Shown: positions 7,108-36,410, counted from the first letter of the stretch. The stretch: 64,000 bases of DNA from an uncultured Acidobacteriota bacterium (GCA_963764025.1 CAVXRK010000011.1:320999-384998), one strand, 5' to 3'. Notes: a model not told the origin generated them from the letters alone. Made by a program: numbers and translations.

Positions 7108-7670
7108 CCGCGTCCGCCGGCGCCCGCGAGCACGATCTTCGAGGCGTCGAAGTCCGGCAGAGTTCCGAGGCCGAACGAAACGGTGTTCGCGAACTGCGCG
7201 ACGCCGACCATCAGGATCGTCTCGAGGATCTGCTGCTCGCTGAAGCCGTATGTCCGCAGGCCCTCGATGTCGTCCGCGTCGATCTTGAGCCCCTCTTTGT
7301 TGAGCTTCAGGGCGAAGTTGAGAAGCGCCTTGTCCTCGGCGGCGATGTTGGTGCGATTGTGGTCGAGCGCGATCTGCTCGGGCTCGGGCCCGTGGATCCC
7401 GAGCATGCGCACGATCTCGCAGTGCGCGGTCACGCAGTAGGTCGAAAGGTTCGCAGCCGAGCAGACGAGGAAGACGTACTCCTTCTGGCGCCTCGCCAGA
7501 GCCCCTTCCTTGACCATCACGCCGCCGATCAACGCGAGCTCGGCCTCGATCAAGTCGGGGCGCAACGTCTGCGCCCGGAAGAAGTTCGGAAGAAACCCGA
7601 AGGCTTCGCGGATCTGCTGGAACGGGGGGAACTCGGATTCGTCGATCGGCCCGCGGCCGATGTAACTCAT
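7104..7670 (-). CDS. CMD/AhpD-like peroxidase-related enzyme (single domain, 188 aa)
   Basis: Clean ORF: FLPNFFRAQTLRPDLIEAELALIGGVM...RRQKEYVFLVCSAANLSTYCVTAHCEIV. Paralogous to both halves of the 5094 gene. Convergent with the anti-sigma gene, overlapping it by 4 nt. Confidence 0.8.
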   Translation of the reverse strand: MSYIGRGPIDESEFPPFQQIREAFGFLPNFFRAQTLRPDLIEAELALIGGVMVKEGALARRQKEYVFLVCSAANLSTYCVTAHCEIVRMLGIHGPEPEQIALDHNRTNIAAEDKALLNFALKLNKEGLKIDADDIEGLRTYGFSEQQILETILMVGVAQFANTVSFGLGTLPDFDASKIVLAGAGGRG

Positions 7671-7741
7671 TGGAACCTCCCGGCTTGCAGACTATACCGC
7701 CCATTTGAATCTTTTCGGCGCCCCGGCCCGTCCAATGGACA

Positions 7742-8003
7742 GTGTTTTCCTGCGAGGCGCTCCGCCAGGCGCTGTCCGACCTCCTCGACGGGGAGGTCGA
7801 TCCGTCCGTCCGCCGGGAGGTGGAGATCCACCTTCAGGACTGCGCGGCCTGCCGGATCCTCTACGACTCCGCCCGGAAGACGCTCGCCGTCGTCTCGAAC
7901 GTCGGCACCTTCGACCTGCCGGCGCCGGTGTCGGAGAGGCTGGTTCGCCGGATCCTCGAGACCGTGCTCGACCCGCGCCACTCCGTCCCGGCCGCCTGTC
8001 CCG
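7742..8003 (+). CDS. second ZAS (zf-HC2) anti-sigma-like domain with no stop codon; continues by a +1 shift into the downstream sigma54 activator (possible fusion)
   Basis: GTG start. MFSCEALRQALSDLLDGEVDPSVRREVEIHLQDCAACRILYDSARKTLAVV is paralogous to the 6868 gene. The frame stays open to 8473. The sigma54 activator has no start codon of its own. Confidence 0.5.
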
Positions 8004-8010
8004 TCCCGGA

Positions 8011-10415: not shown

Positions 10416-10552
10416 CGACCACGAAATTTCGTGGCGCAGGGGCCGCGGCGCGAACCCCGCCAAAATGTATAAGCGACTGAATCCAAACGACTTCGGTCTG
10501 CCACTCGGCCGCCGAAAACCTGGCTCCGCCGTTGCTCTTGCAGGGGTCAGCC

Positions 10553-10795
10553 ATGTTGAGAATCAGCAAAGCCAACGAATGCCTGGTGGTCGAGGGACGG
10601 GTGGCCGGACCCTACGTCGACGAGCTCGCACGGGCGCTCGGGGACGCCGCGGGGATGAAGGCCATCGACGTCTCCGGCGTGGGGTACGTCGACGCGGCGG
10701 GCGCCAGGCTCCTGCAGCGGCTGGTGAAGCAGGGAATCGCGATCCGCGGAAGCTCCGCGTTCGTCGCCGAGACCCTGAAAGGAGCGTCGTCGTGA
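10553..10795 (+). CDS. STAS-domain protein (anti-sigma-factor antagonist-like)
   Basis: MLRISKANECLVVEGRVAGPYVDELARALGDAAGMKAIDVSGVGYVDAAGARLLQRLV. Its stop overlaps the GTG of the downstream ECF sigma (GTGA). Confidence 0.65.
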   Translation: MLRISKANECLVVEGRVAGPYVDELARALGDAAGMKAIDVSGVGYVDAAGARLLQRLVKQGIAIRGSSAFVAETLKGASS

Positions 10796-16648: not shown

Positions 16649-17655
16649 TCAGGCGGAGCGTGGGGGCGGGAAGCGTCCGGCCTGGACGTCGCTCAGGAAA
16701 CCCAGGAGGTGCCGGAAGTAGGGCTCCTGGTCGTCCCACATCGCGAGGTGGCTGCCGTTCTCGCAAATCGCCACCCGGGAACGCGGAAGAAGGGTCCCCA
16801 TCCGGCGGATGTCGTCCGGGTTCATCTCGTCGTACTTCGCGCCGACGACGAGCGTCGGAACGGAGATCTTCGAAGGTCGTCCCAGCGGTCCCAGTCCTTG
16901 AAGGTCCCCGTCACGACGAACTCGTTGGGCCCCTGCATCGTGCCGTAGACCTGGTTGTTGATGTGCTTGAACGCGCGCGCGACCGGGTCCGGCCAGGGAT
17001 CGACGCGGCACACGTGACGCTTGTAGACCCCCTCGTACATCGCCTCCTGGTACTCGGGAGCGTCGTACTTGCCCTGGGCTTCGTACTTCTCGAGCGTCGC
17101 CAGCAGATCCTTCGGCAGCGCCGCGCGGAGCTTCGCGACGTAGGCCATGTACGACGGAATCGAGGCCGTCATGCTCGAGAGCACCAGGCCCTTCAGGTGC
17201 TTCTGGTATTTCAGCGCGTACTCGATCGCGAGCATGCTGCCCCAGGACTGACCATAGAGATAGAAGTCCTCGAGCCCGAGGGCCGACCGCACCTGCTCGA
17301 CCTCCTCGCGGAACCGGTCGATCCTCCAGAGCGACGGGTCGTCGGGCTGGTCGGAGTAGAAGGATCCGAGCTGGTCGTAGTAGTAGAACTCGACGCCCGC
17401 CTGCGGCAGGAAGTCTTCGAAGCACTCGAAGTACTCGTGCGTGACGCCCGGCCCGCCGTGGAGCGTCAGCATCTTGATCGGTCCCCTGCCGAGCTTCTTC
17501 GTCCAGACCTTGTACTTGCCGTCGACGGGGATCAGCCGGATGCCGGCGGTCTTGACCGCGGGTGTCGGCGCGGGACCCGGCCCCGCCGCGGCGAAGCGGG
17601 AGTGGGCGAGCGATGCGGCGGCGAGGGAGAGGAGAGTCCGGCGGTCGAGAGGCAT
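16649..17655 (-). CDS. exported alpha/beta hydrolase, proline iminopeptidase-like (S33 family); frameshift near 16850
   Basis: Tat/Sec-like N-terminus MPLDRRTLLSLAAASLA. HGGPGVTHEYF. Nucleophile elbow GQSWGS. The C-terminus continues in another frame (PKISVPTLVVGAKYDEMNPDDIRRMGTLLPRSRVAICENGSHLAMWDDQEPYF). Confidence 0.7.
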
Positions 17656-17754
17656 GGAGCGAATAGTAGGACAGACCGCAGACGGCAGACCGCGGACGGC
17701 AGAAGGAAAGGACGGCAGAGGCGCCGGGCCGTCTGCCGTCCGCCGTCCTGACCG

Positions 17755-18075
17755 CTACGACTTCTTGACCGACTTCTTGGCCGCCGGCTTTTCCGCCGCC
17801 ACCTTCGTCAGGCTCCCGCCCTGGATCTTCAGACAGGTCTCGGGTTCGAGCCGCAGGAACCCCTGGCCCTTGCAGGCATTCGAGCCGTGGCAGCCGGAGT
17901 GGCGGCATCCTTCGGCGCCGCAGTCGCCGGTGCCCTTGCACTTGTTGACGCCCCAGCACGGCTTGAGCTTGCCGTCGTCGGGAGCGGGTTTCTGGTCCTG
18001 GGCCCGGAGAGCCGCCGGCAGCGACAGCACTCCGGCCAGCGCGGCCGCGAGCAGGGACTTCGACCGAGGGTTCAT
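17755..18075 (-). CDS. DUF2282-type Sec-signal Cys-rich RiPP precursor (bufferin BufA1-like)
   Basis: [35 protein letters not shown] signal peptide. Core: KPCWGVNKCKGTGDCGAEGCRHSGCHGSNACKGQGFLRLEPETCLKIQGGSL matches the DUF2282 pattern (C.G..KC..DC....sC.G.n.CKG.G....TC....GG). Its ATG overlaps the stop of the DUF2063 gene (ATGA). Confidence 0.8.
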   Translation of the reverse strand: MNPRSKSLLAAALAGVLSLPAALRAQDQKPAPDDGKLKPCWGVNKCKGTGDCGAEGCRHSGCHGSNACKGQGFLRLEPETCLKIQGGSLTKVAAEKPAAKKSVKKS

Positions 18076-18932
18076 GAGAATTCCTCCTTGAGGACGTCGA
18101 GAGCCCCGGTCCATCCGGTGCTCCGCTTGATCACGAAGACGTCGCGCTCGGCGAGAGCGCGGAACGACTCGACGAGGCGGTGGAGCCCGGCCGCGTCCGA
18201 GCCGGCGCCCGTCAGCTCCTGCAGGTCCGGAAGCGTCGCGTCGCCGCACGACGCGGCCTCGACGAGGGCGGCCTCGGCGTCGTCGATCCGTTCGACGCGC
18301 ACGCGGCCGTCGCGGCGGAAGATCAGGACGTTCGCGGGCCGGCCCTCGAGGGCGATCGAGATCGCCTCGTCGTCATCCTCGAATCGGCAGGCCCAGAGCT
18401 CGTCGAGCGGCCAGGCCGAGCGCACGAGCGCGACACCCGGAAGAAGGCCGAACCGCAGGGCGAGGAGCTCCTCGGGGGTGCGGCGGCGCAGGTCCTCCCA
18501 TCGGGCGGGGGTTGCGTCCGCCGCGACGAACGACTCGCCGATGGTCCGCTCCAGCCGTGCGAGGTCCGGCAGGAACGGGAGGTCCACGGTCGCCCGGTCG
18601 AACTCGAGAAAGGCAGGGAGCCGGTCGCCGACGCGGGCGAGGTCGAACGAGCGGGGCGGGAAGACGCCGAGGTAGCGCGTCATGAGCGCCTCGAAGGCGT
18701 CGGCGCCGAGGATCCGCCGGATCGCCGCGTACTCGAGGCCCGCGACCTCGACGATCCGGGCCACGTAGCCGTGGGCGTAGACGTGCCAGCGGTCGGCGAC
18801 CGATCCGCGGCGGGGCCGGCGGAAGGCCGTCTCGCGTTCCGCCTCCGACCGCGGCCGCCGGCCGGTGAGGTCGTCGATGAAACCCTGCTGCGCGAGACGA
18901 AGCTCGTGGACGTCAGGCCGCGGTCGCCGCAT
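18072..18932 (-). CDS. DUF2063-family protein (second copy)
   Basis: [24 protein letters not shown]...[54 protein letters not shown]. 286 aa. Located between the MNIO and precursor genes. Confidence 0.7.
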
Positions 18933-19780
18933 GAAACGCCTCCTCCGAATTTCGCTGAATCTCTTCGGCGCGCCGCGCCTCGGCGAGCACCGTCGCGAGC
19001 GGCGGGATTGCCGCGTCCCACTCGATGAGGGTCGGCACGGGGCCAAACCGGGCCACGGCGGACCGATAGAGGCCCCAGACCGCGTCGGCGACGGGATGGT
19101 CGTGGGTGTCGATGACGAGGTCGCCGTGGTCTTCGTGGCCGGCCAGATGCATCTGCCCGACCCGATGCGCCGGCAGCCGCCTGAGGAAACGCCGCGCGTC
19201 GAGGCCGTGGTTGCGGGCGTTGACGTAGAGGTTGTTGACGTCGAGCAGGATCCCGCAGTCGGCTTCGTCCGCGACCGCCGCGAGGAAGTCCGCCTCCGAG
19301 AGGCGGGACGCCGCGTGCTCGACGTAGCTCGAGATGTTCTCGACGAGGATGCGGCGGCCCGAGGAACTCCTGGACGCTCGCGGATCTTCCGCGCCGCGCG
19401 ACACACGGCCTCTTCGGTGAGCAGCAGCGGGAGCAGGTCGTGGCTGTTGTGGCCGCCGAGGCCGGTCCAGCAGAGGTGGTCCGAGACGATGACCGGAGCA
19501 CGCGGTCACAGAGGGCCTTGAGGCGACGCAGGTATCCGCCATCGACGGGCTCGGCCGAACCGAGCGACATCGAGACGCCGTGGAGCGCGACCGGGTAGTC
19601 CCGGCGCACTCGGTCGAGCATCGCGAGCGGGCGGCCCCCGTCGACCATGAAGTTCTCCGAGATCGCTTCGAAGAACGGAACCGCAGGCCGCTCGGCGAGG
19701 ATTTCGTCGAAGTGCTCCTTGCGCAGACCGATCCCGCATCCCGCGAAGCCGCGCGGGCGAAAGCCGCGCCCGCGTTTCAC
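18913..19780 (-). pseudogene. DUF692 MNIO (second copy), broken by about 3 frameshifts (GGG runs and others)
   Basis: Frame 1: [28 protein letters not shown]...[28 protein letters not shown]. Frame 3: [30 protein letters not shown]. Frame 2: [12 protein letters not shown]...[18 protein letters not shown]...MHLAGH...[16 protein letters not shown]...[11 protein letters not shown]. Confidence 0.65.
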
Positions 19781-24138: not shown

Positions 24139-24405
24139 CTAGGGCTTCGCCCGCGCCTTGAGGATCGCCCGGACGAGTTCTTCGGGCGCCTCGTCGGCGG
24201 CCGGCCGGTCCGGATCCGCGTAGGCGGCGCGGCCGAGCCGGATCGACTCCTGGTACTGGCGGATGTATTCCCGGCAGGGGTCGCAGACGCCGAGGTGCCG
24301 CTCGAACTCGCGGTGGCGATCTCCCGGCAGCTCGTTTTCGAGATACAGGTAGAGGAAGTCCAGCAGTTCCCGGCAGGTGATGTAGGGACGCTGGTCGGCG
24401 CTCAT
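24139..24405 (-). CDS. ZAS-type (zf-HC2) anti-sigma factor-like protein, 88 aa
   Basis: MSADQRPYITCRELLDFLYLYLENELPGDRHREFERHLGVCDPCREYIRQYQESIRL carries the HxxxCxxC motif. Confidence 0.7.
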   Translation of the reverse strand: MSADQRPYITCRELLDFLYLYLENELPGDRHREFERHLGVCDPCREYIRQYQESIRLGRAAYADPDRPAADEAPEELVRAILKARAKP

Positions 24406-24508
24406 GAGGGGCTCACACTTCACTCCCGACCCTTCGATGCCGGTGCGGGGGGGAGGTTTCGGCGGATTTTCGGACGATCCCGATCTTTGACATAATCCGC
24501 CCACTCTC

Positions 24509-24844
24509 ATGGATCTGGCGACGCGCGAAGACGGCGGGGTGACGATCATCACGGTCACGGGGGACCTCGTGATCGGCGACGCCGAGTCCAACTTCAAGAA
24601 GGCCGTCACGCGCCTTCTCGAGGAGGGCCGCGTGAACCTCCTCATCGACCTTTCCGCCGTAGGGTTCCTCGACAGCTCGGGTCTCGGCGCCCTGGTGCGG
24701 GCGCTGACGAACTCGCAGAAGGAAGGCGGCCAGACCAAGCTGCTGAACGCCGGGCCCCAGATTCGCAAGCTCCTCCAGATGACCAAGCTCGATTCGGTCT
24801 TCGAGATCCACGAGGACATGGAGGCGGCCGTCTCGAGCTTCTGA
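24509..24844 (+). CDS. STAS-domain anti-sigma-factor antagonist (SpoIIAA-like)
   Basis: ITVTGDLVIGDAESNFKKAVTRLLEEGRVNLLIDLSAVGFLDSSGLGALVRAL...KLLNAGPQIRKLLQMTKLDSVFEIH. Confidence 0.8.
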   Translation: MDLATREDGGVTIITVTGDLVIGDAESNFKKAVTRLLEEGRVNLLIDLSAVGFLDSSGLGALVRALTNSQKEGGQTKLLNAGPQIRKLLQMTKLDSVFEIHEDMEAAVSSF

Positions 24845-24881
24845 CCCCGGTGATTCCTTTGCCGTTTCCGGAAGGAGATCG

Positions 24882-27323
24882 TTGGCGGACGAACCCGAGG
24901 AACCCGGCGGCTTAGCGGGTGACGCGGTTGGGGCGTCCGACGGGACCGAGGCGCAGGTTTCGGCCCTGGCGGAGCTCGCTCTGTGCGAGAACCTCGCCCA
25001 GACGTCGGGCTGGGCCGCTCGCTGGAGCGCGACGATGGCCGGCGCCGACGCGACGCTCCTGTGGGCGCCCGACACCGTCCATCCCATCTTCCTGTGCATC
25101 GGCGCCGAAGGCCAGGGCGTCGAAAAGTTCCTGAGGCGTTCGGCGCCGCGGGATACCGGTTACATCCACGAGCTCGTCCGCGACCGCCAGCCGATCGTGC
25201 TGGCCGGAGACGAGTTGACGACGAACGACCCGTTCGTGCGCGGCCTTTCGGGCTATCGGGCGTGCATCGCCGTGCCGCTCGAGGCCGAGGGTCTGGTCGT
25301 CGGCCTGCTCGCGATTTTCTTCATCCAGATGCCGAACGCCGAGCAAGCGCTCGCCCGCCTCGAGCGCTTCCTCGAGCAGGCGGCGCCGGCCCTCGGCCGG
25401 GCGCTCCGGTCCGAGCGCAAGACCGTCGGGATGCTGCACGCGATCGAGCGGCTCACCAACCTCTACGACCTCTCGAAGGCCTTCGGATCGACGATCGACA
25501 TCGACGAACTCTCGACGCTCATCGTCCGCAAGGCCGCCGACTTCGTGACGGGCGAGACGGCGTGCCTCTGGATGCTCGAAGGCGAGGACGACGTCATCGT
25601 CGCGGGGTCCGCCGTCAACGAGAACTACGACGTCGAGTCGCCGCCCGACGCCGTGGGCGGCGCGCTCGTCGGCGACGTCGTGGCCGACCAGGTTTCCATC
25701 CGCCGCAACCGGATCCCCGAGGACGACCCGGTCGCGACCGAGAATCCGTCCTACCCGGTCCGCTCGGCGCTCGCCGTGCCCCTCGTCGAGGACGAGATTT
25801 CCATCGGGGCGCTCGTCGTCGCCAACAAGCGGGGGCGCCACCCCGAGTTCACGGCCGAAGACGAGGAGCTCTTGAACGACCTCGCCCGCCAGGCCGTGCG
25901 GGCGTTGCGCACGGCGCGCCAGCACGAGGCCGAGAAGAAGGTCGAGGAGCTCGACGCCCTGCTCGCCGTCAGCCGTGAGATCACCGCCACCCTCGATCTC
26001 GACAAGGTGATGCAGACGATCGTCAACGCAACCTCGGCGCTGATCGATTACGATCGCTGCGGCATCGCGATCCAGGAGAAAGGAAGGCTGCGGCTGGGCG
26101 CGATCTCCGGAACCGCCGAGTTGGACCGCAAGGACCCGGACGCCCGGCGCATCGAAGACCTGCTCCAGTGGGTCTTCCTCTCAGGAACGGACACCGCGGT
26201 CACCCAGACCGAGGACGGTGCGATCTCGGCGGACCGTCCCGAGACCGAGGAGAAGTTCCGCGCCCTCTTTCAGGAGACGGGCCTACGCTCCTTCTACGGG
26301 GTCCTGCTGAAGGACGAGGAAGGCAAGCTCGGAGCGCTCGGCTTCGAGAGCAAGGAGCCGCTCGTCTTCGACGAGGAGACGCGAGATCTGCTCTCTATCC
26401 TGGTCAACCAGGCCACGGTCGCGGTCCGCAACGCGCAGCTGTACCAGCAGGTGCCGCTCGCCGGCTTCTGGAAGCCGCTGCTCGAGAAGCGGCGCAAGCT
26501 CGCTGCGATCCCGAAGTCACGGCGCCGTGCCTGGGCCATTCGGGTCGGCGTGGCCGCGCTCATTCTCGTCGTGGCCCCGTGGCCCCTGCGCATCACCGGC
26601 CCGGCGCGGGTCCTGCCGGGACGGCGTGCCGCAGTCACCTCCATGGTGGACGGCGTCGTGGGAACGGTGCTGCGCCGGGAAGGGGATCGCGTCGAGGCTG
26701 GCGACGTCATCGCGACGCTCAAGGACGAGAGCTACCAGGCGGCTCTCGCGGAAGCCAGATCGAACCTCACGCTGGCGGAGAGCGATATCGCGCGGTCCCG
26801 CCAGAACGCCGACGCCGGCGCGGTGTTCGACGCCGAGGCGCGGCGCCGCGAGGCCCTGGCGCGCATCGCGCTCGAGGAGGATCGGCTCTCGCGCACCCGA
26901 CTGACCGCCCCCGCCTCCGGGGTCATCGTTACCCCGCGCATCGAGGAACGGGTCGGGCAACTGCTGTCCCGAGGGGCAGAGCTGTGCGTCGTCGCCGACG
27001 TCCGGAACGTCACGGCCGAGGTCGCCGTTCCCGAGTCCGATGCCGGGCTGGTCAAGGCCGGCCAGAAGACTACCTTGAAGTTCAATTCCTACCCTGGCTC
27101 TCTCTTCCGTGGCGAAGTCGCGCGAGTCGCGCCCCGCATTCGCGAGGAGGGCGACCAGCGTTTCGTGATCGCCGAGGTCGCCGTGTCGAACCCCGACGGC
27201 AGGCTGAAGACCGGCATGCTCGGGAACGGCAAGGTCTCCGTCGGCACCCGCCGCGTCATCACGGCGCTCTTCCGAAAGCCGCTGCGCTACCTCTGGAGCA
27301 AAATCTGGCCCCTGCTTCCGTGA
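24882..27323 (+). CDS. triple-GAF domain protein fused to a TM segment and an HlyD-family periplasmic adaptor (membrane fusion protein)
   Basis: Three GAF-like blocks (aa about 20-170, 190-340, 360-520). TM: AWAIRVGVAALILVVAPW. HlyD beta-sandwich/lipoyl-like region: ITGPARVLPGRRAAVTSMVDGVVGTVLRREGDRVEAGDVIATL...LTAPASGVIVTPRIEERVGQLLSRGAELCVV. 813 aa. Confidence 0.75.
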   Translation: MADEPEEPGGLAGDAVGASDGTEAQVSALAELALCENLAQTSGWAARWSATMAGADATLLWAPDTVHPIFLCIGAEGQGVEKFLRRSAPRDTGYIHELVRDRQPIVLAGDELTTNDPFVRGLSGYRACIAVPLEAEGLVVGLLAIFFIQMPNAEQALARLERFLEQAAPALGRALRSERKTVGMLHAIERLTNLYDLSKAFGSTIDIDELSTLIVRKAADFVTGETACLWMLEGEDDVIVAGSAVNENYDVESPPDAVGGALVGDVVADQVSIRRNRIPEDDPVATENPSYPVRSALAVPLVEDEISIGALVVANKRGRHPEFTAEDEELLNDLARQAVRALRTARQHEAEKKVEELDALLAVSREITATLDLDKVMQTIVNATSALIDYDRCGIAIQEKGRLRLGAISGTAELDRKDPDARRIEDLLQWVFLSGTDTAVTQTEDGAISADRPETEEKFRALFQETGLRSFYGVLLKDEEGKLGALGFESKEPLVFDEETRDLLSILVNQATVAVRNAQLYQQVPLAGFWKPLLEKRRKLAAIPKSRRRAWAIRVGVAALILVVAPWPLRITGPARVLPGRRAAVTSMVDGVVGTVLRREGDRVEAGDVIATLKDESYQAALAEARSNLTLAESDIARSRQNADAGAVFDAEARRREALARIALEEDRLSRTRLTAPASGVIVTPRIEERVGQLLSRGAELCVVADVRNVTAEVAVPESDAGLVKAGQKTTLKFNSYPGSLFRGEVARVAPRIREEGDQRFVIAEVAVSNPDGRLKTGMLGNGKVSVGTRRVITALFRKPLRYLWSKIWPLLP

Positions 27324-27329
27324 GCTCTC

Positions 27330-28620
27330 GTCCTGGCCGACTCCTCTCCGCGACCCGCATCGAAGAGAGCGCGGCGGCCCTCGCGGCCCTCCACGGGACG
27401 GCGAGCGACCGACCTGCGATCCGCTCCGACGCCGTGATCCGGCGCGTCGTGCAACTGGGGGAGATCCACTGGGTGATCAAGAACCCGGAGACCACGAAGT
27501 ACTACAACTTCGACGACCCGGAGTGGGGTCTCTGCCAGCTCTTCGACGGCACGCGCACGGTCGCTCAGGTCCACGCCGACTACCAGGCACAGTTCCCGCG
27601 CGAGAGGATCGAAATGTCCGTCATCCGCGAGTACGAGGAGATGCTCCGGGAGATGGGCCTGATCGAGCAGTCTGCGGCCGAAAGGAACCTCAAACTCCTC
27701 GCGAACGCGAAGACCGCGCGCCAGCGCGCCGCCGAGGAAAAGGCCGAGGGCTTCAACCCGTTCTTCCTCCTCTTCCACGTCCTCGACCCCAACCGCTTCC
27801 TGGACCGCACCGTGAAGTACGTCCGCTGGATCTGGACGCCACCGGTCGTGGCCGCCGCGCTGATCTTCGCTGCCTGGGCTTTCGGGGTCATCCTCATGCA
27901 CTGGGGCGCGATCTGGAGCGGGACAGTCGAACTTTACGCCCTGACATCGAAGCCACTTCTCGACATCATGCAGTTCTTCTTCATCTTGACGTTCATCGGG
28001 CTGTTTCACGAGTTCTCCCACGCGTACGTCACCAAGATCTACGGCGGCGAAGTGCACGACATCGGCCTCGCGCTGCTGTACTTCACGCCCGCGTTCTACT
28101 GCGATACGACCGACTCGGTGCTTTTTACAAGCAAGTGGCAGCGGCTGTGGGTCACAACGGCGGGCATCTACATCGAGGCCATCATGTGCTCGGTGGCCAC
28201 CGTCGCGTGGATGGTTTTCGTACCCCGACACGCTCCTCCACGAGATCGCCTTCAAGACGATGCTCTTCACGGGTGTTTCGACGATCTTTTTCAACATCAA
28301 CCCGCTGATCAAAATCGACGGGTACTACGCGCTCTCGAGCGTTCTCGAGATCCCGGACCTGCGGGAGGAGTCATTCCGGTACATCGGGACGTGGTTTCAG
28401 CGCCACGTCCTGCGCCTCCCGTCGAAGTCCCGGCCGTTTCCCGCCGAAAACGCCGGATCTACTGGATCTTCGGCTCGTTCGCTCTGGCTCTGGGTGGCCG
28501 TCGATCATGCGGTTCATCGCCGGGGTCTTCTTCAACCTCTACAACCACTTCTTCCCGAACTGGGCCGTCGTGCTGCCGCCATCACGCTCTACCGCCTCTT
28601 CCGCCAGCGCGTACGCCTGG
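27330..28620 (+). CDS. site-2-protease-like M50 family membrane metallopeptidase, with at least two frameshifts
   Basis: HEFSHAYVTKIYGGEVHD (HExxH) within TM helices. A second motif NINPLIKIDGYYALS (LDG-like) lies in a shifted frame. Start and end are approximate. Confidence 0.6.
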
Positions 28621-28669
28621 TGACGCGCACGGCGCACCTCTTCTATCTCGACAAGAAGGAGTTGCTCAT

Positions 28670-29500
28670 GTCCCTCGCGTCCGCTCGGCGCTGCTGGCCG
28701 GCGCCGTCGTCCTGCTCTGCTTGTCCTTGTGCCATGGAGCCGGCGTACGTTGCGTGCCCCCGCCGCCCTAGGCCGATGGCAGCGGCCCGCCTCGAGGCAC
28801 CAGAGGACGCGGTCGTAACGCGGGCGCTGGTCGAGGAAGGCGACCGGGTCGAGGCCGGCCAGCCGTCCTTCAGCCTCGTGAGCGCAGCGGCAACGGAGGA
28901 GACGGCGGGCGTACGTCTGAGGGCGAGCGGTTGGCTCGGGGAAGCCAGCCGCGAAAGGAGGCCGGTGAGCCGGACGCGTTTTCGCGTCCGAGACCCGCGG
29001 CATGGCGGCAAACGCCGCGCTCAGAAGTGGCCTCGCCCGGGAAGAGCGCCTGCTCATGAAGAGCCCGTGGCCGGCCGCATCCTGACGCCGTACCTGCGCG
29101 ACCTCAGGGTCGTTCCGTCCCCGCCGGAACGCTGCTGGCCGAGGTCGGCGAGGACCGACAGATGGCGGCGGAGCTCACGGTCTCGGAACGGCTCCTCGAG
29201 GACATCGTACCCAATGCGCAGGTTTCGGCGCTCTTCCGCGGTCATCCCCGCCCCGTGCGCGGCACCATCGTCTCGTGGCCCCGGCGGCCATGGCGTAGCC
29301 CAAGACCGCCGGCGGGTTCGACCCGGCCGCGCCGCAGGAACACCCCGAACAGTTCGTCGCCCTCGCCGTTTTCGAAAACACCGACGGGAGCTTGATCGCC
29401 CGGAATGATCGGATACGCCAAGATCTACGGCCGTCGAGCGTCCTACGCCGGTCGGGTCTGGCGAGTGCTCAAGCGGTGGGTGCAGTCGGTGGCGTGGTAG
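28670..29500 (+). CDS. HlyD-family secretion/adaptor protein (second, short), frameshifted
   Basis: AAGGAG SD before ATG 28670. MSLASARR, then after a shift the TM SALLAGAVVLLCLSL. Later: EAPEDAVVTRALVEEGDRVEAGQPSFSLV; LTVSERLLEDIVPNAQVSALFRGHPRPVRGTIVSV; IGYAKIYGRRASYAGRVWRVLKRWV*. Confidence 0.5.
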
Positions 29501-29532
29501 TCGAGGGGGGCCGCGCGGGTTCCAAAAGAAAA

Positions 29533-29554
29533 GCGCCCCGCCGGAGCGGGGCGC
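29533..29554 (-). terminator. Rho-independent terminator (GCGCCCCGC-cgga-GCGGGGCGC followed by a U-tract on the minus strand); possibly bidirectional
   Basis: A perfect 9-bp GC stem with a 4-nt loop. On the minus strand it is followed by TTTTCTTTT. It lies between the convergent HlyD-like gene and the repeat-protein gene. Confidence 0.8.
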
Positions 29555-29587
29555 TTCGAACTCCGAAAAACGTCGACTTAGAAGCTG

Positions 29588-30132: not shown

Positions 30133-30149
30133 GGCAAGAAGAGGGCCAG
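30133..30149 (-). promoter_or_regulatory. sigma54 (-24/-12) promoter CTGGCCCTCTTCTTGCC upstream of the repeat-protein gene
   Basis: GG-N10-GC spacing with TTGC at -12. About 35 nt upstream of the ATG. An NtrC-family activator is encoded immediately upstream. Confidence 0.55.
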
Positions 30150-30235
30150 AATTGGCGACGCCTGCCTCCGCTCCCAAGCCTTTCGTTTTCAGTTGCTTGC
30201 AAAAGAGCTCCGCCGATCGTCAGGGCCGGCTGGTT

Positions 30236-30272: not shown

Positions 30273-31653
30273 TCAGAGCCCGTGCTTCCGGCAGAGATAC
30301 TTGATCTGGTTGGCGTCGAGCCCCAGGCGGCGAGCCGCTTCCGCCTTCACCCCGCCGGCCGCCGCGATCGCCTCCGCGAGCGTCCGGCGCTCGAAATCCT
30401 CGACGGCCGACGCGAAGTCGCGGACCGTGGATGCCCCGCCGCCCGCGGGAGCGCGCGGCGCCTCCCGGAGGGCCCGCGGAAGCTCCTCCTCGCCGATCTC
30501 GGGCGCGTCGGAAAAGAGGACGAGCATCTCGACGACGTGCTGGAGCTCGCGCACGTTGCCCTTCCACGCGTGGGCCCGAAGCCGGGCGAGGGCGCCCTCG
30601 GAGAAGCGGCGCCCGGTCTTCCCGTGCCGCTGCCCGAAGAGCGCCAGGAAATGGTCGGCGAGCAGCACGATGTCTTCCCCGCGTTCGCGCAACGGCGCGA
30701 TCCGGAGCGGAACGGTGTGGATCCGGTAAAACAGGTCCTCGCGGAACGTTCCGGCGGCGACCCGCGCTTCGAGGTCCTCGTTGGTGGCCGAAATCAGCCG
30801 GAAATCGACGGGGATCGGCCGCCGTCCGCCGACGCGCTCGACCACCCGGCTCTCGAGCACCCGGAGGAGCTTCGACTGCACCCCGGGCGAAAGTGTGCCG
30901 ATCTCGTCGAGGAAAATCGTTCCGCCCGAGGCGAGCTCGAACCGGCCGGGCCGCGATGCGATCGCGCCCGTGAAGGCGCCCTTCTCGTGGCCGAAGAGCT
31001 CCGCCTCGGCGAGCGACTCCGGCAGCGCCGAGGCGTTGACCGGCACGAATGCGCGGTCGCGCCGGGGGCTCGCGGCGTGGATCGACTGCGCGACGAGGTC
31101 CTTGCCCGTCCCGCTCTCCCCCGAGATGAGCACGGTCGCGTCGCTGCCGGCGACCCGCTCGATGTCGCGGGCCAGGGCGAGCATGGGCGCGCTCCGGCCG
31201 ATCAGCCGGTCGAGGGAGCGGGAGGGCTGGGCGGCCGCACGGAGCTCGCGGTTCTCGACGAGCAGCCGCCGGCGCTCGAGCGCGCGGTCGAGGATCAGGA
31301 GGAGCTCCGCCGTGTCGATCGGCTTCTGGAAGAAGTCGAAGGCGCCGAGCGCGACCGCCTGCAGCGCGTACTGCCGCTCCCCCTCTCCGGACATCATCAC
31401 GACCGTCGCCTCCGGGTCGCGCTCCCGCACGTAACGCAGCAGGTCGAGCCCCTCCTGCACCTGACCGGAGGGCGGCAGCCGCATGTCGAAGAGGTAGAGG
31501 TCCGGGTCCGAGGCGCAGAGCGCCCGGCCGTGGGTCGCGTCGCGGGCCGACGACACCGCGAACCGTCCCTTGAGCGCCCAGGTCAGCTGCTCGAGGAGAA
31601 AGGCGTCGTCCTCGACGATGACGATCCGTCCCAGGGGACGCGCCGGCTCGGTC
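30273..31653 (-). CDS. sigma54-dependent two-component response regulator (NtrC family: REC + AAA+ + Fis HTH)
   Basis: GTG start overlapping the kinase stop (GTGA). REC domain: RIVIVEDDAFLLEQL...DLYLFDMRLP. AAA+: GESGTGKD, GAFTGA, ELFGHEKG. C-terminal HTH: AEAARRLGLDANQIKYLCRKHGL. The listed ORF start is an upstream in-frame GTG. Confidence 0.85.
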
Positions 31654-32365
31654 ACCCCGCCTCCCCGGCGCTCCCCGGCAGCGACAGGCGGATCAACGTC
31701 CCCCCGCCCGGCTGCGAAAGGATCCGGATCGATCCCCGGTGGAACTTCACGATCTGGCTGGCGGTCGACAAGCCGAGGCCCACGCCTTCCGGTTTCGTCG
31801 TCTCGTACGGCTGGAAAAGTCGGTCCCGCAGGAACTCCGGCGTCATCCCGGCGCCATTGTCGATGAATTCCACGACCGCGCGGGGCCGCCGCGCGGAGCC
31901 GCCCGTGTAGGTCCGCACGAGGACCTTGCCCTCGGGAATCGCCGCCTCCCACGCGTTCTCGAGCAGGCTCGCGAATGCGTCGCCGAGATAGACCGGGTCT
32001 CCCCAGATCCGCGGAACGTCGCCCAGCGCGAGCGACACGGACGGGCCGTCCCCGGGCGTTCCGCGCGCGCCGCGGCGCGTCGGCTTGCCGGCGATCTTCC
32101 GGAGCAGCTCATTGACGTCGAGCTCGACCTTGACCAGCAGCGCGTCCTCGCGCTCGACGAAACGGCCGGCGATGTCCTCCAGCCGCTCGACGGTCGACGC
32201 CAGGAGGTCGCGTACGGTTTTTCGGAACTCCCCGTCCTCCCAGTGCTCGTCCAGGTTGGACAGCAGGAGCCGGAGGCGAAACGACATGTTCTTGACGTCG
32301 TGGACGAGCACGCGGTCGAGCGCCGAGCGCAGGCGCGCCGAGGAACGGGGCCGTTTCGGCGGCAT
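31652..32365 (-). CDS. histidine kinase (HisKA + HATPase_c) with no sensor or TM domain
   Basis: H-box LVHDVKNMSF. N/G-boxes: LGDAFASLLENAWEA...VEFIDNGAGM...GVGLGLSTASQIV. 237 aa. Confidence 0.75.
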   Translation of the reverse strand: MPPKRPRSSARLRSALDRVLVHDVKNMSFRLRLLLSNLDEHWEDGEFRKTVRDLLASTVERLEDIAGRFVEREDALLVKVELDVNELLRKIAGKPTRRGARGTPGDGPSVSLALGDVPRIWGDPVYLGDAFASLLENAWEAAIPEGKVLVRTYTGGSARRPRAVVEFIDNGAGMTPEFLRDRLFQPYETTKPEGVGLGLSTASQIVKFHRGSIRILSQPGGGTLIRLSLPGSAGEAG

Positions 32366-32388: not shown

Positions 32389-33141
32389 CTACCGGGCCGC
32401 GGGCGCCGGGAGGCGGACTTTGACCGCCATCCCGGGGCGCAGCACCGACTTGCCCGGCTCGCGCCGGACGCGGACCACGACCTGGAAGGTGCTGCTCGCC
32501 GCGTCGACGGTCGGGCTGATGAACTGGATCTCGCCCGTCGTCTTCGCGTCGGGGAAGCGCTCGGCAACGACGTCGACCCGGTCGCCCACGCGGACCTGGA
32601 GCAGACGTTCCTCGGGAAGATAGATGCGCGCGAGCAGGGGCTCCGTCGCGGTGATTTTGAAGAGAGGCTCGATGCGGTCTTCGATCACCTTCTGGCCGAT
32701 CCGGGCGTACTTTTCCGTCACCACGCCCGCGAACGGGGCGCGGATTACGGCATAGTCCTTCTGCGTCTTCATCTTCTCCCAGCGCGCCACGGCCACGGCG
32801 TACTGGGCCTTCTTCTCGTCGAGGTCCTGGACGCTCATCACCTTCGAATTCGCCAGGGCCTCCGCGCGGTCGTACTCGGCCTTGCGCAGGTCCATGTCTT
32901 CCTTGGCCTCGCGCACGTCGGCATCGAGAGCCCGCGTATCGAGGGTCGCCAGCGTCTGGCCCTGGACGACCGCCGTGCCCCGGTCGACCACGATCGTCTC
33001 GACGATGCCGGTGATGCGCGCCGACACGACGACGTCCTGGTCCACCATCAGGTGGGTGGAATAGACACCCTCGTCGCCGGGCGCGCCTCGGGCGGCCGCG
33101 CCGGCGAGCAGGAGCAGAAGCAGCGGCAAAGCTCTTTTCAC
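32389..33141 (-). CDS. short HlyD/RND-type membrane fusion (periplasmic adaptor) protein with a signal peptide
   Basis: MKRALPLLLLLLAGAAA signal peptide. Lipoyl/beta-barrel motifs: VSARITGIVETIVVDRGTAVVQGQTLATLD...VIRAPFAGVVTEKYARIGQKV...QVRVGDRVDVVAE. Confidence 0.75.
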   Translation of the reverse strand: MKRALPLLLLLLAGAAARGAPGDEGVYSTHLMVDQDVVVSARITGIVETIVVDRGTAVVQGQTLATLDTRALDADVREAKEDMDLRKAEYDRAEALANSKVMSVQDLDEKKAQYAVAVARWEKMKTQKDYAVIRAPFAGVVTEKYARIGQKVIEDRIEPLFKITATEPLLARIYLPEERLLQVRVGDRVDVVAERFPDAKTTGEIQFISPTVDAASSTFQVVVRVRREPGKSVLRPGMAVKVRLPAPAAR

Positions 33142-33620: not shown

Positions 33621-34784
33621 CCGGGCGACCCGGACGGCCAGGAGGTGACCATGATCTCGGTGCCCTCGCTTCGGCTGAACCAGTTTGGAGTGCGGTTCTA
33701 CGAGGCCCTGCTCTCGGGCGCGGACCTGCAGTCCCTGGTCGGCTTCGAAGTCCTGTCCTTCGGCCCCGGCAGCGAAACAACCCGCGGAAAGGCCGCCAAG
33801 AAGGCCCCTCACGGACGGGTCAACTGGGAGTTCCTCGAAAAGCGGATCTCGGCGTCCGAGCAGGCTTTCCAGCGGCCGATCATCAAGAAGAAGATCGACG
33901 AGCTCGTCACCTACTACCTCCAGTGCGCCGACTCCGGGACCCTTCCCGCCATCCCCGGCAGCGTTCTCCTCGTTTCGGAGAAGCGGCTCGAGTACGCCCC
34001 GTCGGGCGGCCGGTCCGACGCCGGCTCGCTCAAGCTCCCGGAGGAGTCCGGCATCCTCCGGGCGCTCGACGGGCAGCACCGCCTCCTTGCCCTCCACCAG
34101 CTCGCCGAGAAGCACAGCCTGCGGGACTTCCAGGTGCCGGCCGTCGTGTTCGACAACCTGACGCCCGACCAGGTCGTCGAGCTCTTCGTGACGATCAACA
34201 GCAAGCACACGAAGCTGAACCCGTCGCACCTGATCTCGCTCGCCGGCCGGCGCCTCTACCGCGACGACAACCTCGCGGCCGCCCACGACGTCGTCCGGAC
34301 GCTCAACGAGGACGAGGGCTCGCCGCTGAAGGGCTCGATCAAGGTCCTCGGCATCGGCAAGGGCACGGTGACCCAGGCCTCGCTCGCCGACGAGCTGCGC
34401 GACGTGTTCGCCGCGATCGACACCGCCGGCGGGCGCGTGGCCCGGGAGTTCCGCGAGAACGCCCGCCGCTTCTTCCTGAACTACTTCAAGGCCGCCGCCC
34501 GGGCCTTCCCCGCGGCCTTCGCCGGACGCAAGTACTCGATCAAGAGCTCGACGTCGCTGCGCGCCTTCATCCGCATCGTCCCGTACGTGATCGCGATGGT
34601 CCGCAAGCGGGGCGGCGACGTCTGGTCCGCCGGCGAGCTCGACGCGGCGCTGCGCCCGTGGGCCGAGGCGATCGGCGACCGCCGCTTCGAGACCGACACC
34701 GTCTGGAAGGAAAAGCTGACGGGCGGAACGCGGTCCGGGGTCGAGATTCTGGCGCGGGAGCTGCGCCAGGGTCTGAACACCTGA
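33621..34784 (+). CDS. DGQHR-domain protein (DndB-like, ParB/Srx nuclease superfamily)
   Basis: AGGAGG SD. Hallmark LRALDGQHRLLALHQLAE motif. 387 aa. No dndACDE genes nearby. Confidence 0.75.
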   Translation, partial: PGDPDGQEVTMISVPSLRLNQFGVRFYEALLSGADLQSLVGFEVLSFGPGSETTRGKAAKKAPHGRVNWEFLEKRISASEQAFQRPIIKKKIDELVTYYLQCADSGTLPAIPGSVLLVSEKRLEYAPSGGRSDAGSLKLPEESGILRALDGQHRLLALHQLAEKHSLRDFQVPAVVFDNLTPDQVVELFVTINSKHTKLNPSHLISLAGRRLYRDDNLAAAHDVVRTLNEDEGSPLKGSIKVLGIGKGTVTQASLADELRDVFAAIDTAGGRVAREFRENARRFFLNYFKAAARAFPAAFAGRKYSIKSSTSLRAFIRIVPYVIAMVRKRGGDVWSAGELDAALRPWAEAIGDRRFETDTVWKEKLTGGTRSGVEILARELRQGLNT

Positions 34785-34837
34785 GCCTTTGAACTCTCGG
34801 GCCGAAAAAGCGTAATTAGAGGCGGAGGAAACGCGAT

Positions 34838-35422
34838 TTGGCCGCAATCGGAGGCTGCCTCGTCATCCTGCTCGTCGGCGCCGTCGTTTGCGCCATTTGG
34901 GCGATCTGGCGCTACAACAACCTCGTCTCGCTCCGCAACCAGGTCGCCAACGGCTGGAAGCAGATCGACGTCCAGTTGAAGCGCCGGCACGACCTCATCC
35001 CGAACCTCGTCTCGGCCGTGAAGGGCGAGATGCAGTTCGAGCAGGACACCCTCGAGAAGGTGATCCAGGCCCGCAACTCCGCCGTCGCCGCCCGGGGCGT
35101 CGCCGACGCCGCCGACAAGGAGAACGCCCTGACGCAGACCCTCTCGCGCCTCTTCGCCCTGGCGGAGAACTACCCGACGCTCAAGGCCAACGAGTCGGTC
35201 AAGACGCTCATGGAGGAGCTCTCGTCGACGGAGAACCGGATCGGCTTCGCCCGCCAGTTCTACAACGACATCGCGACGCGCTACAACACGTCCCAGCAGG
35301 TTTTTCCCGACAGCCTGATCGCGCAGGCGTTCAAGTTCCAGCCGGTCGAGCTCTTCGAGATCCAGGACGCCGCCGAGCGCGCGGTGCCGAAGGTGGACCT
35401 GAGCCTTCGCCCTCCGCAATAG
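34838..35422 (+). CDS. LemA family protein
   Basis: N-terminal TM then RYNNLVSLRNQVANGWKQIDVQLKRRHDLIPNLV...ENYPTLKANESVKTLMEELSSTENRIGFARQFYND. Confidence 0.85.
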   Translation: MAAIGGCLVILLVGAVVCAIWAIWRYNNLVSLRNQVANGWKQIDVQLKRRHDLIPNLVSAVKGEMQFEQDTLEKVIQARNSAVAARGVADAADKENALTQTLSRLFALAENYPTLKANESVKTLMEELSSTENRIGFARQFYNDIATRYNTSQQVFPDSLIAQAFKFQPVELFEIQDAAERAVPKVDLSLRPPQ

Positions 35423-35449
35423 GCCCCGGGTCTCCCCCGGGGGACTTCG

Positions 35450-36410
35450 ATGCCTCTCAATCTCTACGACCAGCAGAAGCGCAACATCGCGAACACGCGG
35501 ATGTTCATCGCCGGGTTCATCCTGCTCCTCGTCCTCGTCGGGCTCGGTGCCGACGGCATGCTCTACGCCGGCGGGGTTTCGCCGGGGCTGCCGATCGCCA
35601 CCCTCGGGGCCCTCTGCCTCGGAAGCTTCTCGGCATGGTGGTCCCTCCAGGGGGGCGACCGGGCCGTGATCGAATCGACGCGGGCCGTTCCCCTCGACCC
35701 TGCCGATCCCCGGCAGCGGGTCCTCGAAAACGTCGTCGAGGAGATGGCGATCGCGAGCCGGGCTGCCGAAGCCCGCGATCTACGTCATCCCGGACGGCGA
35801 CCCCAACGCCTTCGCGACGGGCATCGGCCCCGAGCGCTCCTCGATCGCGGTGACCCGGGGATTGCTCGAGAAGCTCGACCGCGACGAGCTCCAGGGCGTG
35901 GTGGCCCACGAGCTCTCGCACGTCCGCAACTACGACGTGCGATTGATGACCGTCGTCGCCGCCCTCGCGGGCGCGATCCTGCTGCTATCCGACTGGAGCC
36001 GCCGTGGCTTGCGGTTCGGGGGCCGCCGGGATTCCTCGGAGAAGGGCGGAGGCCTCGGCCTCCTCTTCGTCGCGCTCTGGCTGGTGTCGATCGTGCTCGC
36101 GCCGATCATCGCCCAGCTCGTGTCGCTCGCGGTCTCGCGCCAGCGCGAATACCTCGCCGACGCGTCCGGCGCGGAGCTGACGCGCAACCCCCTGGGCCTC
36201 GCGTCGGCGCTCGAGAAAATCGCCGCCTCGGTCGAGCCGACGCCCTCGATCAAGCAGGGCATCGCGCACCTGTGCATCGAGGATCCGCGCGGACGACCCG
36301 TCAACGGCCGGGAGGGCTTCGTCGCGAACCTCTTCGCGACCCACCCGCCCGTCGAGAAGCGGATCGCGGCGCTGCGGGAGATGGCGTACCAGTCGGCCGG
36401 ACGCGCCTAG
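35450..36410 (+). CDS. htpX: HtpX-like M48 zinc metalloprotease; +1 shift in a GGG run near 35765
   Basis: N-terminal TMs (MFIAGFILLLVLVGL). After the shift: LPKPAIYVIPDGDPNAFATGIGPERSSIAVTRGLLEKLDRDELQGVVAHELSHV (HExxH)...REYLADASGAELT. Confidence 0.75.

Follow-up and report, generated by a model that had tools for sequence, protein, structure and literature searches.

A conserved Acidobacteriota gene module containing an M50-HlyD fusion protein and a sigma-54-controlled repeat-peptide gene, with a possible role in peptide processing and export

Introduction

What could a membrane-embedded protease do among periplasmic adaptor proteins when no pump is encoded beside them? This question is raised by a 64,000-nucleotide stretch of DNA from an uncultured Acidobacteriota bacterium (GCA_963764025.1 CAVXRK010000011.1:320999-384998), referred to here in its entirety as the window. 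An initial annotation of this DNA described a divergent pair of genes for a ZAS-type anti-sigma factor and a STAS protein, a triple-GAF-HlyD adaptor, a site-2-protease (S2P)-like M50 peptidase, and a short second HlyD-like gene, and proposed either a signal-gated device for peptide processing and export or a device for regulated intramembrane proteolysis (RIP). Our analysis revealed a conserved module of about ten kilobases (∼24.5 to 33.1 kb of the window; Table 1) composed of two convergent units: genes for STAS, GAF-HlyD, and M50-HlyD proteins on the plus strand, and genes for a repeat peptide, a response regulator, a histidine kinase, and a 250-amino-acid (aa) HlyD protein on the minus strand. 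On balance, we lean toward the view that the module produces a small ribosomal peptide whose leader guides processing and, probably, export, under gating by the GAF and STAS domains.

Results

A single gene spans the M50 peptidase and HlyD-like regions

Mechanical lists of open reading frames (ORFs) were crowded because the G+C content of the window is ∼69%, and coding frames were chosen by third-position GC. Downstream of the GAF-HlyD gene, the frame indicated in this way shifts near position 28218 and repeatedly thereafter. We rebuilt the reading frame by frameshift-aware protein-to-DNA alignment against relatives, and the alignment joined the entire region (27320-29500) into one gene, which we call M50-HlyD. 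The polytopic M50 peptidase of the initial annotation carries the HEFSH and NPLIKIDGYY motifs as described; it is not a separate gene, as its frame continues into an HlyD domain. The short second HlyD-like gene turned out to be the C-terminal part of the same protein. The protein is encoded by an intact single ORF of 728 aa in an Illumina-assembled related locus (L004), with matches to HlyD_3 and HlyD_D23 and a subthreshold match to Peptidase_M50. The proposed HlyD-M50-HlyD trio is therefore two genes here; a third HlyD gene does exist, but it lies beyond the region then described, on the minus strand (32389-33141). The possibility that the corrected sequence encodes a conventional pump was ruled out, as correction yielded the M50-HlyD fusion and no transporter.

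Is the gene broken in this organism or only in this assembly? The window copy of M50-HlyD contains ∼13 one- or two-base frameshifts and one in-frame stop, all within 28218-29400 and thus across 1.2 kb, and the peptide gene described below contains three more frameshifts (at ∼29986, 29836, and 29700). These lesions could mean that the locus is a decaying pseudogene cluster in this genome. However, amino acid identity to relatives is no lower in the broken half of M50-HlyD than in the intact one, and the genes for GAF-HlyD, the response regulator, the kinase, the 250-aa HlyD protein, and a DndB-like protein are free of frameshifts relative to L001, a 79% identical locus that is collinear with the window over ∼20 kb. 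An unrelated HbpS-like gene (PF03928; 22545-23856, minus strand), collinear with a 436-aa gene in L001, had to be corrected for ∼15 frameshifts and 2 stops. This second cluster of indels amid clean neighbors suggests patchy long-read consensus quality. The closest relatives are long-read nanopore metagenome-assembled genomes (MAGs; MFD), whose copies carry their own, differing out-of-frame C termini, whereas the copies in Illumina MAGs are intact. Given the clean flanking genes, the undiminished identity, the broken unrelated gene, and the intact Illumina copies, the frameshifts are very probably assembly errors, and decay of the locus is improbable.

M50-HlyD combines a putative peptide-recognition domain, an M50-like membrane core, and a periplasmic adaptor

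Which kind of protease is fused to the adaptor? The protein from the window scores just below the gathering threshold of the Pfam Peptidase_M50 model (PF02163; 26.4 versus 27.2 bits). Homologues from L004 (21.8 bits) and from the distant locus L081 (21.5 bits) also score below it, and some homologues carry a precomputed PF02163 match. Based on these scores, we regard M50-HlyD as a divergent M50-like clade. Its zinc motif is HEFSH, and its second metal-ligand motif is NINPLIKIDGYY. In an alignment of 76 homologues, H236, N331, N333, P334, and L335 were invariant, and E237, H240, D339, and G340 were nearly so (≥90%). The top named NCBIfam matches were proteases that cleave the leaders of ribosomally synthesized and posttranslationally modified peptides (RiPPs): daptide_HExxH (NF041824; 1.6e-48), a model that spans the N-terminal domain too and gave 165.8 bits against an equivalog cutoff of 300, and YydH/LiaK (NF058609; 4.9e-12), which gave 46 bits against a cutoff of 225.

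The N-terminal domain has a weak match to the PqqD model TIGR03859 (18.4 versus a cutoff of 46), and some homologues carry a precomputed match to PF05402. When a profile of the first ∼135 residues, built from ten homologues, was searched against the PDB, the top matches were PqqD and the RiPP recognition elements (RREs) of lasso peptide systems, TbiB1 and TfuB1, with E values of 3e-4 to 0.04 (5sxy, 3e-4; 3g2b, 4e-4; TbiB1, 5e-3). An AlphaFold2 model of a homologue (P0002), computed from the alignment of 76 sequences, had a mean pLDDT of 89.8. In this model the N-terminal domain consists of three strands (E45-51, E54-61, and E66-71) followed by three helices, with pLDDT of >90. The profile matches and the modeled fold suggest a PqqD/RRE-like peptide-recognition domain, putatively a leader binder.

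The membrane core of the model is helical. Its HExxH motif lies within helix 219-246, and the core also includes a beta-hairpin and the NxNPL...DG motif. The model has ∼seven membrane helices in total, which would place the N-terminal domain in the cytoplasm and the C-terminal domain in the periplasm. The C-terminal module shows the barrel-sandwich, alpha-hairpin, and barrel of a membrane fusion protein (MFP), matches HlyD_3 with 47.4 bits, and had MexA, AcrA, MacA, and ZneB as its best Foldseek matches. With the whole model as the query, matches to the MFP domain prevailed in Foldseek, and no independent match to an S2P or RRE fold was returned.

A leader-repeat peptide gene lies opposite the protease gene

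If the protease recognizes a leader, where is the peptide? A gene missed by the initial annotation sits between the M50-HlyD stop (29500) and the regulator gene. It is preceded by a strong ribosome-binding site and, once its three frameshifts are corrected, encodes a leader followed by an array of tandem units (Table 1), with a repeat period of 27 nucleotides (nt). The lysine-rich leader of ∼45 aa is conserved, with M1, V5, L9, T10, Q13, K16, and I17 invariant. No Pfam or NCBIfam model matches this leader family; profile searches returned 102 and 143 relatives, none of them named. This family (family 1) is small, with 81 representatives at an E value of ≤1e-10 among 1.84 billion proteins, all unnamed. 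The leader is more strongly conserved than the enzyme: in L041, a related locus, identity is 72% for the leader but 38% for M50-HlyD.

Such a repeat gene was present in every related genome locus, and its unit varied by lineage (for example, AGKSIAGRA, SARSARSVEA, AQDLS, RANTP, SPSLK, APRVA, DALRD, and TKAPLRAG). The periods at the DNA level (15, 21, 24, 27, 36, 48, and 60 nt) are all multiples of three, the sole exception being one indel-ridden long-read locus, and the periods of repeats from distant metagenome loci are likewise multiples of three. We then asked how units differ within an array. Across 20 arrays, differences between units and their consensus fell at codon positions 1, 2, and 3 in a ratio of 75/38/364, and 339 were synonymous and 90 nonsynonymous; several arrays had 16 to 36 synonymous changes with 0 or 1 nonsynonymous change. 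Because the differences within arrays are mostly synonymous, the amino acid sequence of each unit is under purifying selection. Judged from these substitution patterns, the repeats are translated, and the unit sequence is held constant within an array and replaced between deeper clades.

Other features of the peptides varied among clades. Peptides of the window clade end in Phe after a truncated unit (...GKASF, GKAGF, GKAQF, or KANF; L001, L003, L007-L010, and L037; P0130, P0139, P0142, P0153, and P0166); those of other clades have acidic or polar C-terminal tails. In six loci, a paralog of the peptide gene is also present, with a sigma-54 promoter of its own. In the paralogs of four of these loci (L023, L028, L029, and L048), a shortened leader (MAEKEVKVELTDAQKAKIREASPEAKEL...) runs straight into AQDLR or AQDTRVE repeats; in the other two (L031 and L032; MSKEVRIELTDAQKSKIKAATGKTV...), the leader is full-length. 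The weakest leader matches (P0217-P0222) are repeat-free peptides of 53 to 60 aa, with LTPEQKxxIKxATGK followed by ...ELEERIAP and a short tail, and may represent a broader leader-peptide family. The genomic context recovered for one of them (P0222) includes genes for TIR, peroxidase, and HxlR proteins but neither M50 nor HlyD, and is uninformative for the module. Some pentapeptide-like units (such as AQDLS) have weak matches to Qnr/pentapeptide proteins. We considered whether they form a beta-helix, and this idea was not supported, as AlphaFold2 predicted low-confidence coil; units of 7 to 10 residues in other lineages weaken it further.

The peptide gene has a sigma-54-type promoter

The start of the peptide gene is preceded by a −24/−12 promoter (Table 1), and the motif TGG[CT]-N8-TGC was found 43 to 76 nt upstream of the start in 40 of 41 related family-1 peptide genes. 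There was no sigma-70-like promoter upstream of the window peptide gene. Both hallmarks of a sigma-54-dependent unit, a GG-N10-GC −24/−12 promoter and an adjoining enhancer-binding protein gene, are thus present. The enhancer-binding protein is an NtrC-type response regulator, conserved in related loci, whose GTG start overlaps the kinase stop codon. The kinase has neither a transmembrane (TM) segment nor a sensor domain and is soluble; among named models it is closest to PrsK, matching the C-terminal region (6.9e-35) at 121 bits, below the cutoff of 300. The first gene of this minus-strand operon encodes the 250-aa HlyD protein, with the N terminus VKRALPLLLLLLAGAAARG. At the terminator between the convergent units, Rfam returned only subthreshold, terminator-like matches. 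PADLOC assigned no defense-system membership; its sole match was to the generic AAA+ part of the regulator.

A conserved element, ACTGAAAA-N6-8-GCTT, precedes the −24 box of the peptide promoter by ∼30 to 45 nt (30175-30193 in the window, minus strand), and was found at the equivalent position in L001, L003, L004, L011, L024, L026, and L037. It could be an IHF or activator-binding site.

TABLE 1 Features of the module and its divergent neighbor in the window
Feature	Coordinates	Strand	Evidence or description
zf-HC2 (ZAS-type) protein, 88 aa, soluble	24139..24405	-	PF13490, 37.9 bits (cutoff, 22.2)
STAS protein, 111 aa, anti-sigma-antagonist type	24509..24844	+	PF01740, 7.7e-21; DSSG motif
3xGAF-TM-HlyD/MFP protein, 813 aa	24882..27323	+	GAF, 6e-32 (3 stretches); HlyD_D23, 2e-23
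M50-HlyD, ∼728 aa	27320..29500	+	Frameshift-aware alignments; PqqD/RRE-like N-terminal domain, M50 core, TM helices, C-terminal HlyD/MFP
Intrinsic terminator	29530..29557	-	12-bp stem, then T-run; after peptide gene, between convergent units
Candidate substrate peptide, ∼173 aa	29578..30100	-	Leader MGNEVKIKLTDAQKAKIKEATGKDLPEIRVESFG, short linker, ∼14x GARATGKSI, end GKASF
Sigma-54 −24/−12 promoter	30134..30148	-	TGGCCCTCTTCTTGC; 48 nt upstream of peptide ATG
NtrC-type response regulator (REC, AAA+, HTH_8)	30273..31655	-	Sigma54_activat, 4.3e-66; Response_reg, 1e-17
Histidine kinase core, 237 aa	31652..32365	-	H-box LVHDVKN; HATPase_c, 3.5e-17
HlyD/MFP protein, 250 aa, secreted periplasmic adaptor	32389..33141	-	Signal peptide; TIGR01730, 152.3 bits (cutoff, 94.9); HlyD_D23, 2.8e-23

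The module is conserved across distant Acidobacteriota and is not linked to a pump

How widely do these genes travel together? A genome scan identified 39 Thermoanaerobaculia/Acidobacteriota loci related to the window, and a metagenome scan with the family alignment added 80 loci, ∼70 of which are only 31 to 34% identical. Judged by the names of identical proteins, these ∼70 distant loci are from Candidatus Acidiferrales. At least 1,419 protease homologues were found at an E value of ≤1e-20, and the module is abundant in soil metagenomes. On all sufficiently long contigs among the 39 loci, the STAS, GAF-HlyD, and M50-HlyD genes lie on one strand and the repeat-peptide, regulator, kinase, and HlyD genes on the other. 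In the distant loci the order is STAS (divergent), GAF-HlyD, short HlyD, and M50-HlyD, with one or two small genes and the sigma-54 activator on the opposite strand, so that the homologue of the 250-aa HlyD protein is located between GAF-HlyD and M50-HlyD. There, the STAS, GAF-HlyD, short HlyD, and sigma-54 activator genes are the sole genes conserved around M50-HlyD, and the flanks vary. One distant M50-HlyD homologue (P0083) is solo, beside an HD-GYP/GGDEF gene, and is uninformative for the module.

Of the 95 loci with at least 600 nt downstream of M50-HlyD, 84 have a small ORF on the opposite strand just 3' of M50-HlyD, preceded by a sigma-54 promoter and a ribosome-binding site, and at least three of the misses (L007, L034, and L040) do carry the gene. 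The linked peptide genes, including those of loci only 31 to 34% identical, belong to three leader families. Family 2 leaders read MSI(E/Q)KKSLISTLKTAKKA and are followed by repeats such as (KSINK)n, (PNKLTGG)n, (SRITAP)n, or (SKVALG)n. Family 3 consists of repeat-free peptides of 22 to 38 aa, such as MAKKTLKKAKKLEATKPL with a short variable tail. Small genes of families 2 and 3 also have sigma-54 promoters. In L002 (29% identity), an unrelated peptide N terminus is followed by (PTRVNAI)x7. The clades of M50-HlyD track the leader families.

The initial annotation had pointed out that no ABC or RND pump is encoded here, and this was borne out on a wider scale: the window ORFs tested included no ABC, RND, or TolC gene, and none recurred among the conserved neighbors in ∼80 related loci. 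Could the three HlyD proteins nevertheless be ordinary efflux adaptors for an unlinked ABC, RND, or MFS pump, with the M50 region acting as an anchor and the repeat peptide unrelated? All three HlyD domains pass MFP models, the fold resembles MexA, AcrA, and MacA, and NCBI labels homologues "efflux RND transporter periplasmic adaptor subunit." However, the HExxH and NPLxxxDG residues are invariant or nearly so across the 76 homologues, no conserved pump gene lies nearby, and the peptide gene and its sigma-54 promoter accompany the protease across three leader families. We therefore consider the efflux explanation unlikely.

GAF and STAS proteins accompany the protease, and the ZAS-type protein is probably a neighbor

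The large GAF-HlyD protein of the initial annotation was confirmed by its GAF and HlyD_D23 matches (Table 1) and by TIGR01730 (113.4 bits; cutoff, 94.9): three cytoplasmic GAF domains are followed by a single TM segment and a periplasmic HlyD/MFP adaptor. Its gene has a TTG start codon with the ribosome-binding site GGAAGGAG, and its stop overlaps the GTG start of M50-HlyD (GTGA). The identical architecture was found in L081. The STAS gene is the first of this plus-strand operon, and its product scores above the TIGR00377 cutoff (73.2 versus 53.45 bits). It was kept in every related genome locus that extends far enough upstream and in 35 distant metagenome loci. There is no RsbW/SpoIIAB-type kinase or PP2C phosphatase in the conserved module, the sole HATPase_c protein having a histidine-kinase H-box.

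GAF-HlyD and M50-HlyD both end in a Trp-rich amphipathic tail (27285-27323, LRYLWSKIWPLLP; 29460-29497, WRVLKRWVQSVAW). The tail is kept in distant homologues (...WLWQKLWSWLP and ...WRWVRSQFW; L072, L079, L083, and L092) and is absent from the 250-aa HlyD protein. It may be a membrane-interface or partner-docking motif.

Does the module control a sigma factor by proteolysis? M50/S2P proteases are known to carry out RIP in anti-sigma cascades, and genes for a zf-HC2 (ZAS-type) protein and a STAS protein stand directly upstream. In such a device, M50-HlyD would cleave a membrane anti-sigma factor, the ZAS-type protein or another, with the GAF, STAS, and HlyD domains as sensors. Both proteins of the ZAS/STAS pair and their divergent orientation, as initially described, were confirmed. 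The zinc motif of the zf-HC2 protein (H-x3-C-x2-C) reads HLGVCDPC, and its score against the RsrA equivalog (30.6 bits) is below the cutoff of 62.5. However, the ZAS-type protein has only 88 aa and no TM segment, and there is no adjoining gene for an extracytoplasmic function (ECF) sigma factor. Its gene, whose neighbors are the STAS gene and the HbpS-like gene, was detected in only 5 of the 39 related loci, those of the closest relatives (L001/L005, L008, L009, and L040), while the remaining module persists; it is probably a neighbor rather than a member of the module. Moreover, the protease bears an RRE-like domain, whereas RIP proteases typically have PDZ or CBS domains, and regulation in the conserved module falls to a sigma-54 activator rather than to an ECF sigma factor. 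In light of these observations, RIP of an anti-sigma factor is very improbable.

A further alternative is that the module serves as a sensor or regulator and exports nothing. The repeat peptide could have a regulatory or structural role in the cytoplasm or at the membrane and be degraded by M50-HlyD in a controlled way, with the MFP and GAF domains reporting the state of the envelope or of metabolism to the soluble kinase. This would fit a kinase without a sensor domain of its own, the presence of GAF and STAS domains, which are cytoplasmic signaling domains, the lack of an encoded transporter, and the predicted disorder of the repeats. Without a conduit, however, it is difficult to explain why there are three periplasmic adaptor domains bearing alpha-hairpins, and the leader/core layout and the 22- to 38-aa peptides of family 3 resemble precursors of secreted peptides. 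We regard this alternative as rather unlikely, although less so than efflux or RIP.

Flanking genes

Genes for a DndB-like protein, LemA, and an M48 peptidase follow the module on its 3' side (33651-36410 in the window, plus strand; 16373-19089 in L001). LemA and M48 genes were found in many, not all, Thermoanaerobaculia loci and are missing from the distant loci. Upstream of the module is a separate bufferin/MbnB-type RiPP unit (17200-19505, minus strand) that includes an ORF with MbnB_TglH_ChrH and DUF2063 matches (18075-19505, minus strand); the collinear region of L001 (523-1699) has BufA1 (PF10048) and HvfC_N genes. A second exact sigma-54-type motif, TGGCTCCGCCGTTGC (10521-10535, plus strand), lies just 3' of a gene for a 1,179-aa GAF-PAS sigma-54 activator (6876-10415) and may drive a small ORF (10481-10795).

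Discussion

How might these parts work together? Of the two options offered by the initial annotation, signal-gated peptide processing and export gained support from the RRE-like N-terminal domain, the matches to RiPP-protease models, and the linked leader-repeat gene; the RIP option did not. In the working model that we favor, the kinase and the sigma-54 response regulator would turn on the sigma-54 promoter of the peptide gene. The lysine-rich leader of the peptide would be bound in the cytoplasm by the PqqD/RRE-like domain of M50-HlyD, and the intramembrane M50 core would remove the leader and possibly cut the array into identical 9-residue units. The MFP domains of the fusion, GAF-HlyD, and the 250-aa HlyD protein would form a periplasmic conduit, perhaps leading to an unlinked outer-membrane channel, and the three GAF domains and STAS may gate the assembly from the cytoplasmic side.

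Several observations weigh against this model. No ABC, RND, MFS, or outer-membrane factor gene is linked to the module in ∼80 loci, which leaves the export step without a known motor. A modifying enzyme is absent from the conserved module, so that the RRE would serve the protease only. The Pfam M50 and PqqD models score the window protein under their cutoffs. The repeat units are hydrophilic, unlike classical S2P substrates, and an AlphaFold2 model of one repeat peptide shows a short leader helix and low-confidence disordered repeats, which neither supports nor excludes discrete products. A test for coevolution of RRE and leader family gave no specific signal: the RRE is no more divergent between leader families than other parts of the protein, a pattern that shows coinheritance only. 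The protease gene is broken in the window, and if the frameshifts were real, the system would be dead in this organism. Finally, the module is known from sequence analyses alone, and all of its carriers are uncultured.

Why would one unit be held constant within an array and exchanged between lineages? Because identical, selected units are replaced between lineages and the gene has an adjacent two-component system and a sigma-54 promoter, it is an attractive guess that the peptide is a lineage-specific signal with autoinduction. A bolder version would make the module an unrecognized type of peptide factory, widespread in uncultured soil Acidobacteriota, in which the RRE-guided M50-HlyD fusion, together with the GAF-gated and free adaptors and with no ABC, RND, or MFS motor, would cut a tandem-repeat precursor into many copies of one lineage-specific peptide of 5 to 10 residues and export them, the autoinduction loop amounting to a new quorum-sensing-like language; we offer this version only tentatively and consider it doubtful.

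If our reading holds, leader-dependent maturation and export would gain a protease-adaptor fusion and a sensor-bearing adaptor that operate with no dedicated pump, and multicopy tandem-repeat precursors, with a unit constant per array and variable among lineages, would be a new class of bacterial substrate. It also raises the question of how an adaptor assembly could function without a linked transporter. Genome-mining pipelines overlook the module because its proteins are publicly labeled either "hypothetical protein" or "efflux RND transporter periplasmic adaptor subunit," and full-text literature searches turned up no account of M50-HlyD fusions, of GAF-HlyD proteins, or of the repeat peptides. 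The module offers a testable handle on cell-cell signaling or peptide secretion in Acidobacteriota, a dominant yet poorly understood soil phylum.

How does the module compare with known systems? M50 proteases are known to cleave RiPP precursors, and EpeP is thought to export the product too (PMC10885120). Like EpeP/YydH-LiaK and the daptide protease, M50-HlyD is a polytopic intramembrane metalloprotease with an HExxH motif, and its gene neighbors that of a small precursor. Unlike them, it is fused to HlyD, paired with GAF-HlyD, and accompanied by a putative tandem-repeat substrate, and the module has no radical-SAM epimerase, daptide tailoring gene, or ABC transporter. Because its scores are below the cutoffs and the genomic context is absent, we place it outside the daptide and epipeptide protease equivalogs. 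Nor is the module a RiPP cluster in the strict sense, as no tailoring enzyme is conserved, despite the leader/core precursor and the RRE-like protease.

In the maturation of peptide pheromones by Eep and RseP, an M50-family enzyme frees a small secreted peptide, as proposed for the module. Eep and RseP bear PDZ domains, lack an RRE and an MFP fusion, and cut hydrophobic substrates derived from signal peptides, whereas the protease of the module has an RRE-like domain and an MFP fusion and no PDZ domain. With regard to its control, the kinase core is nearest to the C terminus of PrsK and is paired with an NtrC-type regulator, as in the PrsK/PrsR sigma-54 pair of PEP-CTERM/XrtA systems, but it lacks the PrsK membrane domain, and there is neither a PEP-CTERM motif in the peptide nor an exosortase gene.

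Multicopy precursors are familiar from yeast alpha-factor, from Kex2-processed fungal proteins such as the ustiloxin precursor, and from the multicore precursors of cyanobactins. As in those, a single leader precedes numerous identical short units that are constant within a precursor and differ by lineage. The units of the module, in contrast, abut without a spacer or recognition sequence, their release is putative, and they occur in a bacterial host under sigma-54 control.

The barrel-sandwich, alpha-hairpin, and beta-barrel fold is shared with the adaptors of tripartite efflux and of type I secretion (HlyD, MacA, and AcrA/MexA), and GAF-HlyD and the 250-aa HlyD protein pass the adaptor model TIGR01730. 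In the module, however, adaptors extend into the cytoplasm with sensory (GAF) or catalytic (RRE-M50) parts, and neither a pump nor an outer-membrane factor is linked in ∼80 loci. Given that no transporter is linked, the module is not a tripartite pump. The closest working analogy is provided by the exporters of double-glycine peptides, such as CvaB-CvaA-TolC, which consist of a peptidase-containing ABC transporter, an MFP, and TolC. There, as in the model proposed here, recognition and cleavage of a leader are physically coupled to MFP-lined export of an unmodified or lightly modified peptide. The module would differ in using an M50 rather than a C39 peptidase, in having no ABC ATPase, and in carrying one MFP fused to the protease and a second MFP with three GAF domains.

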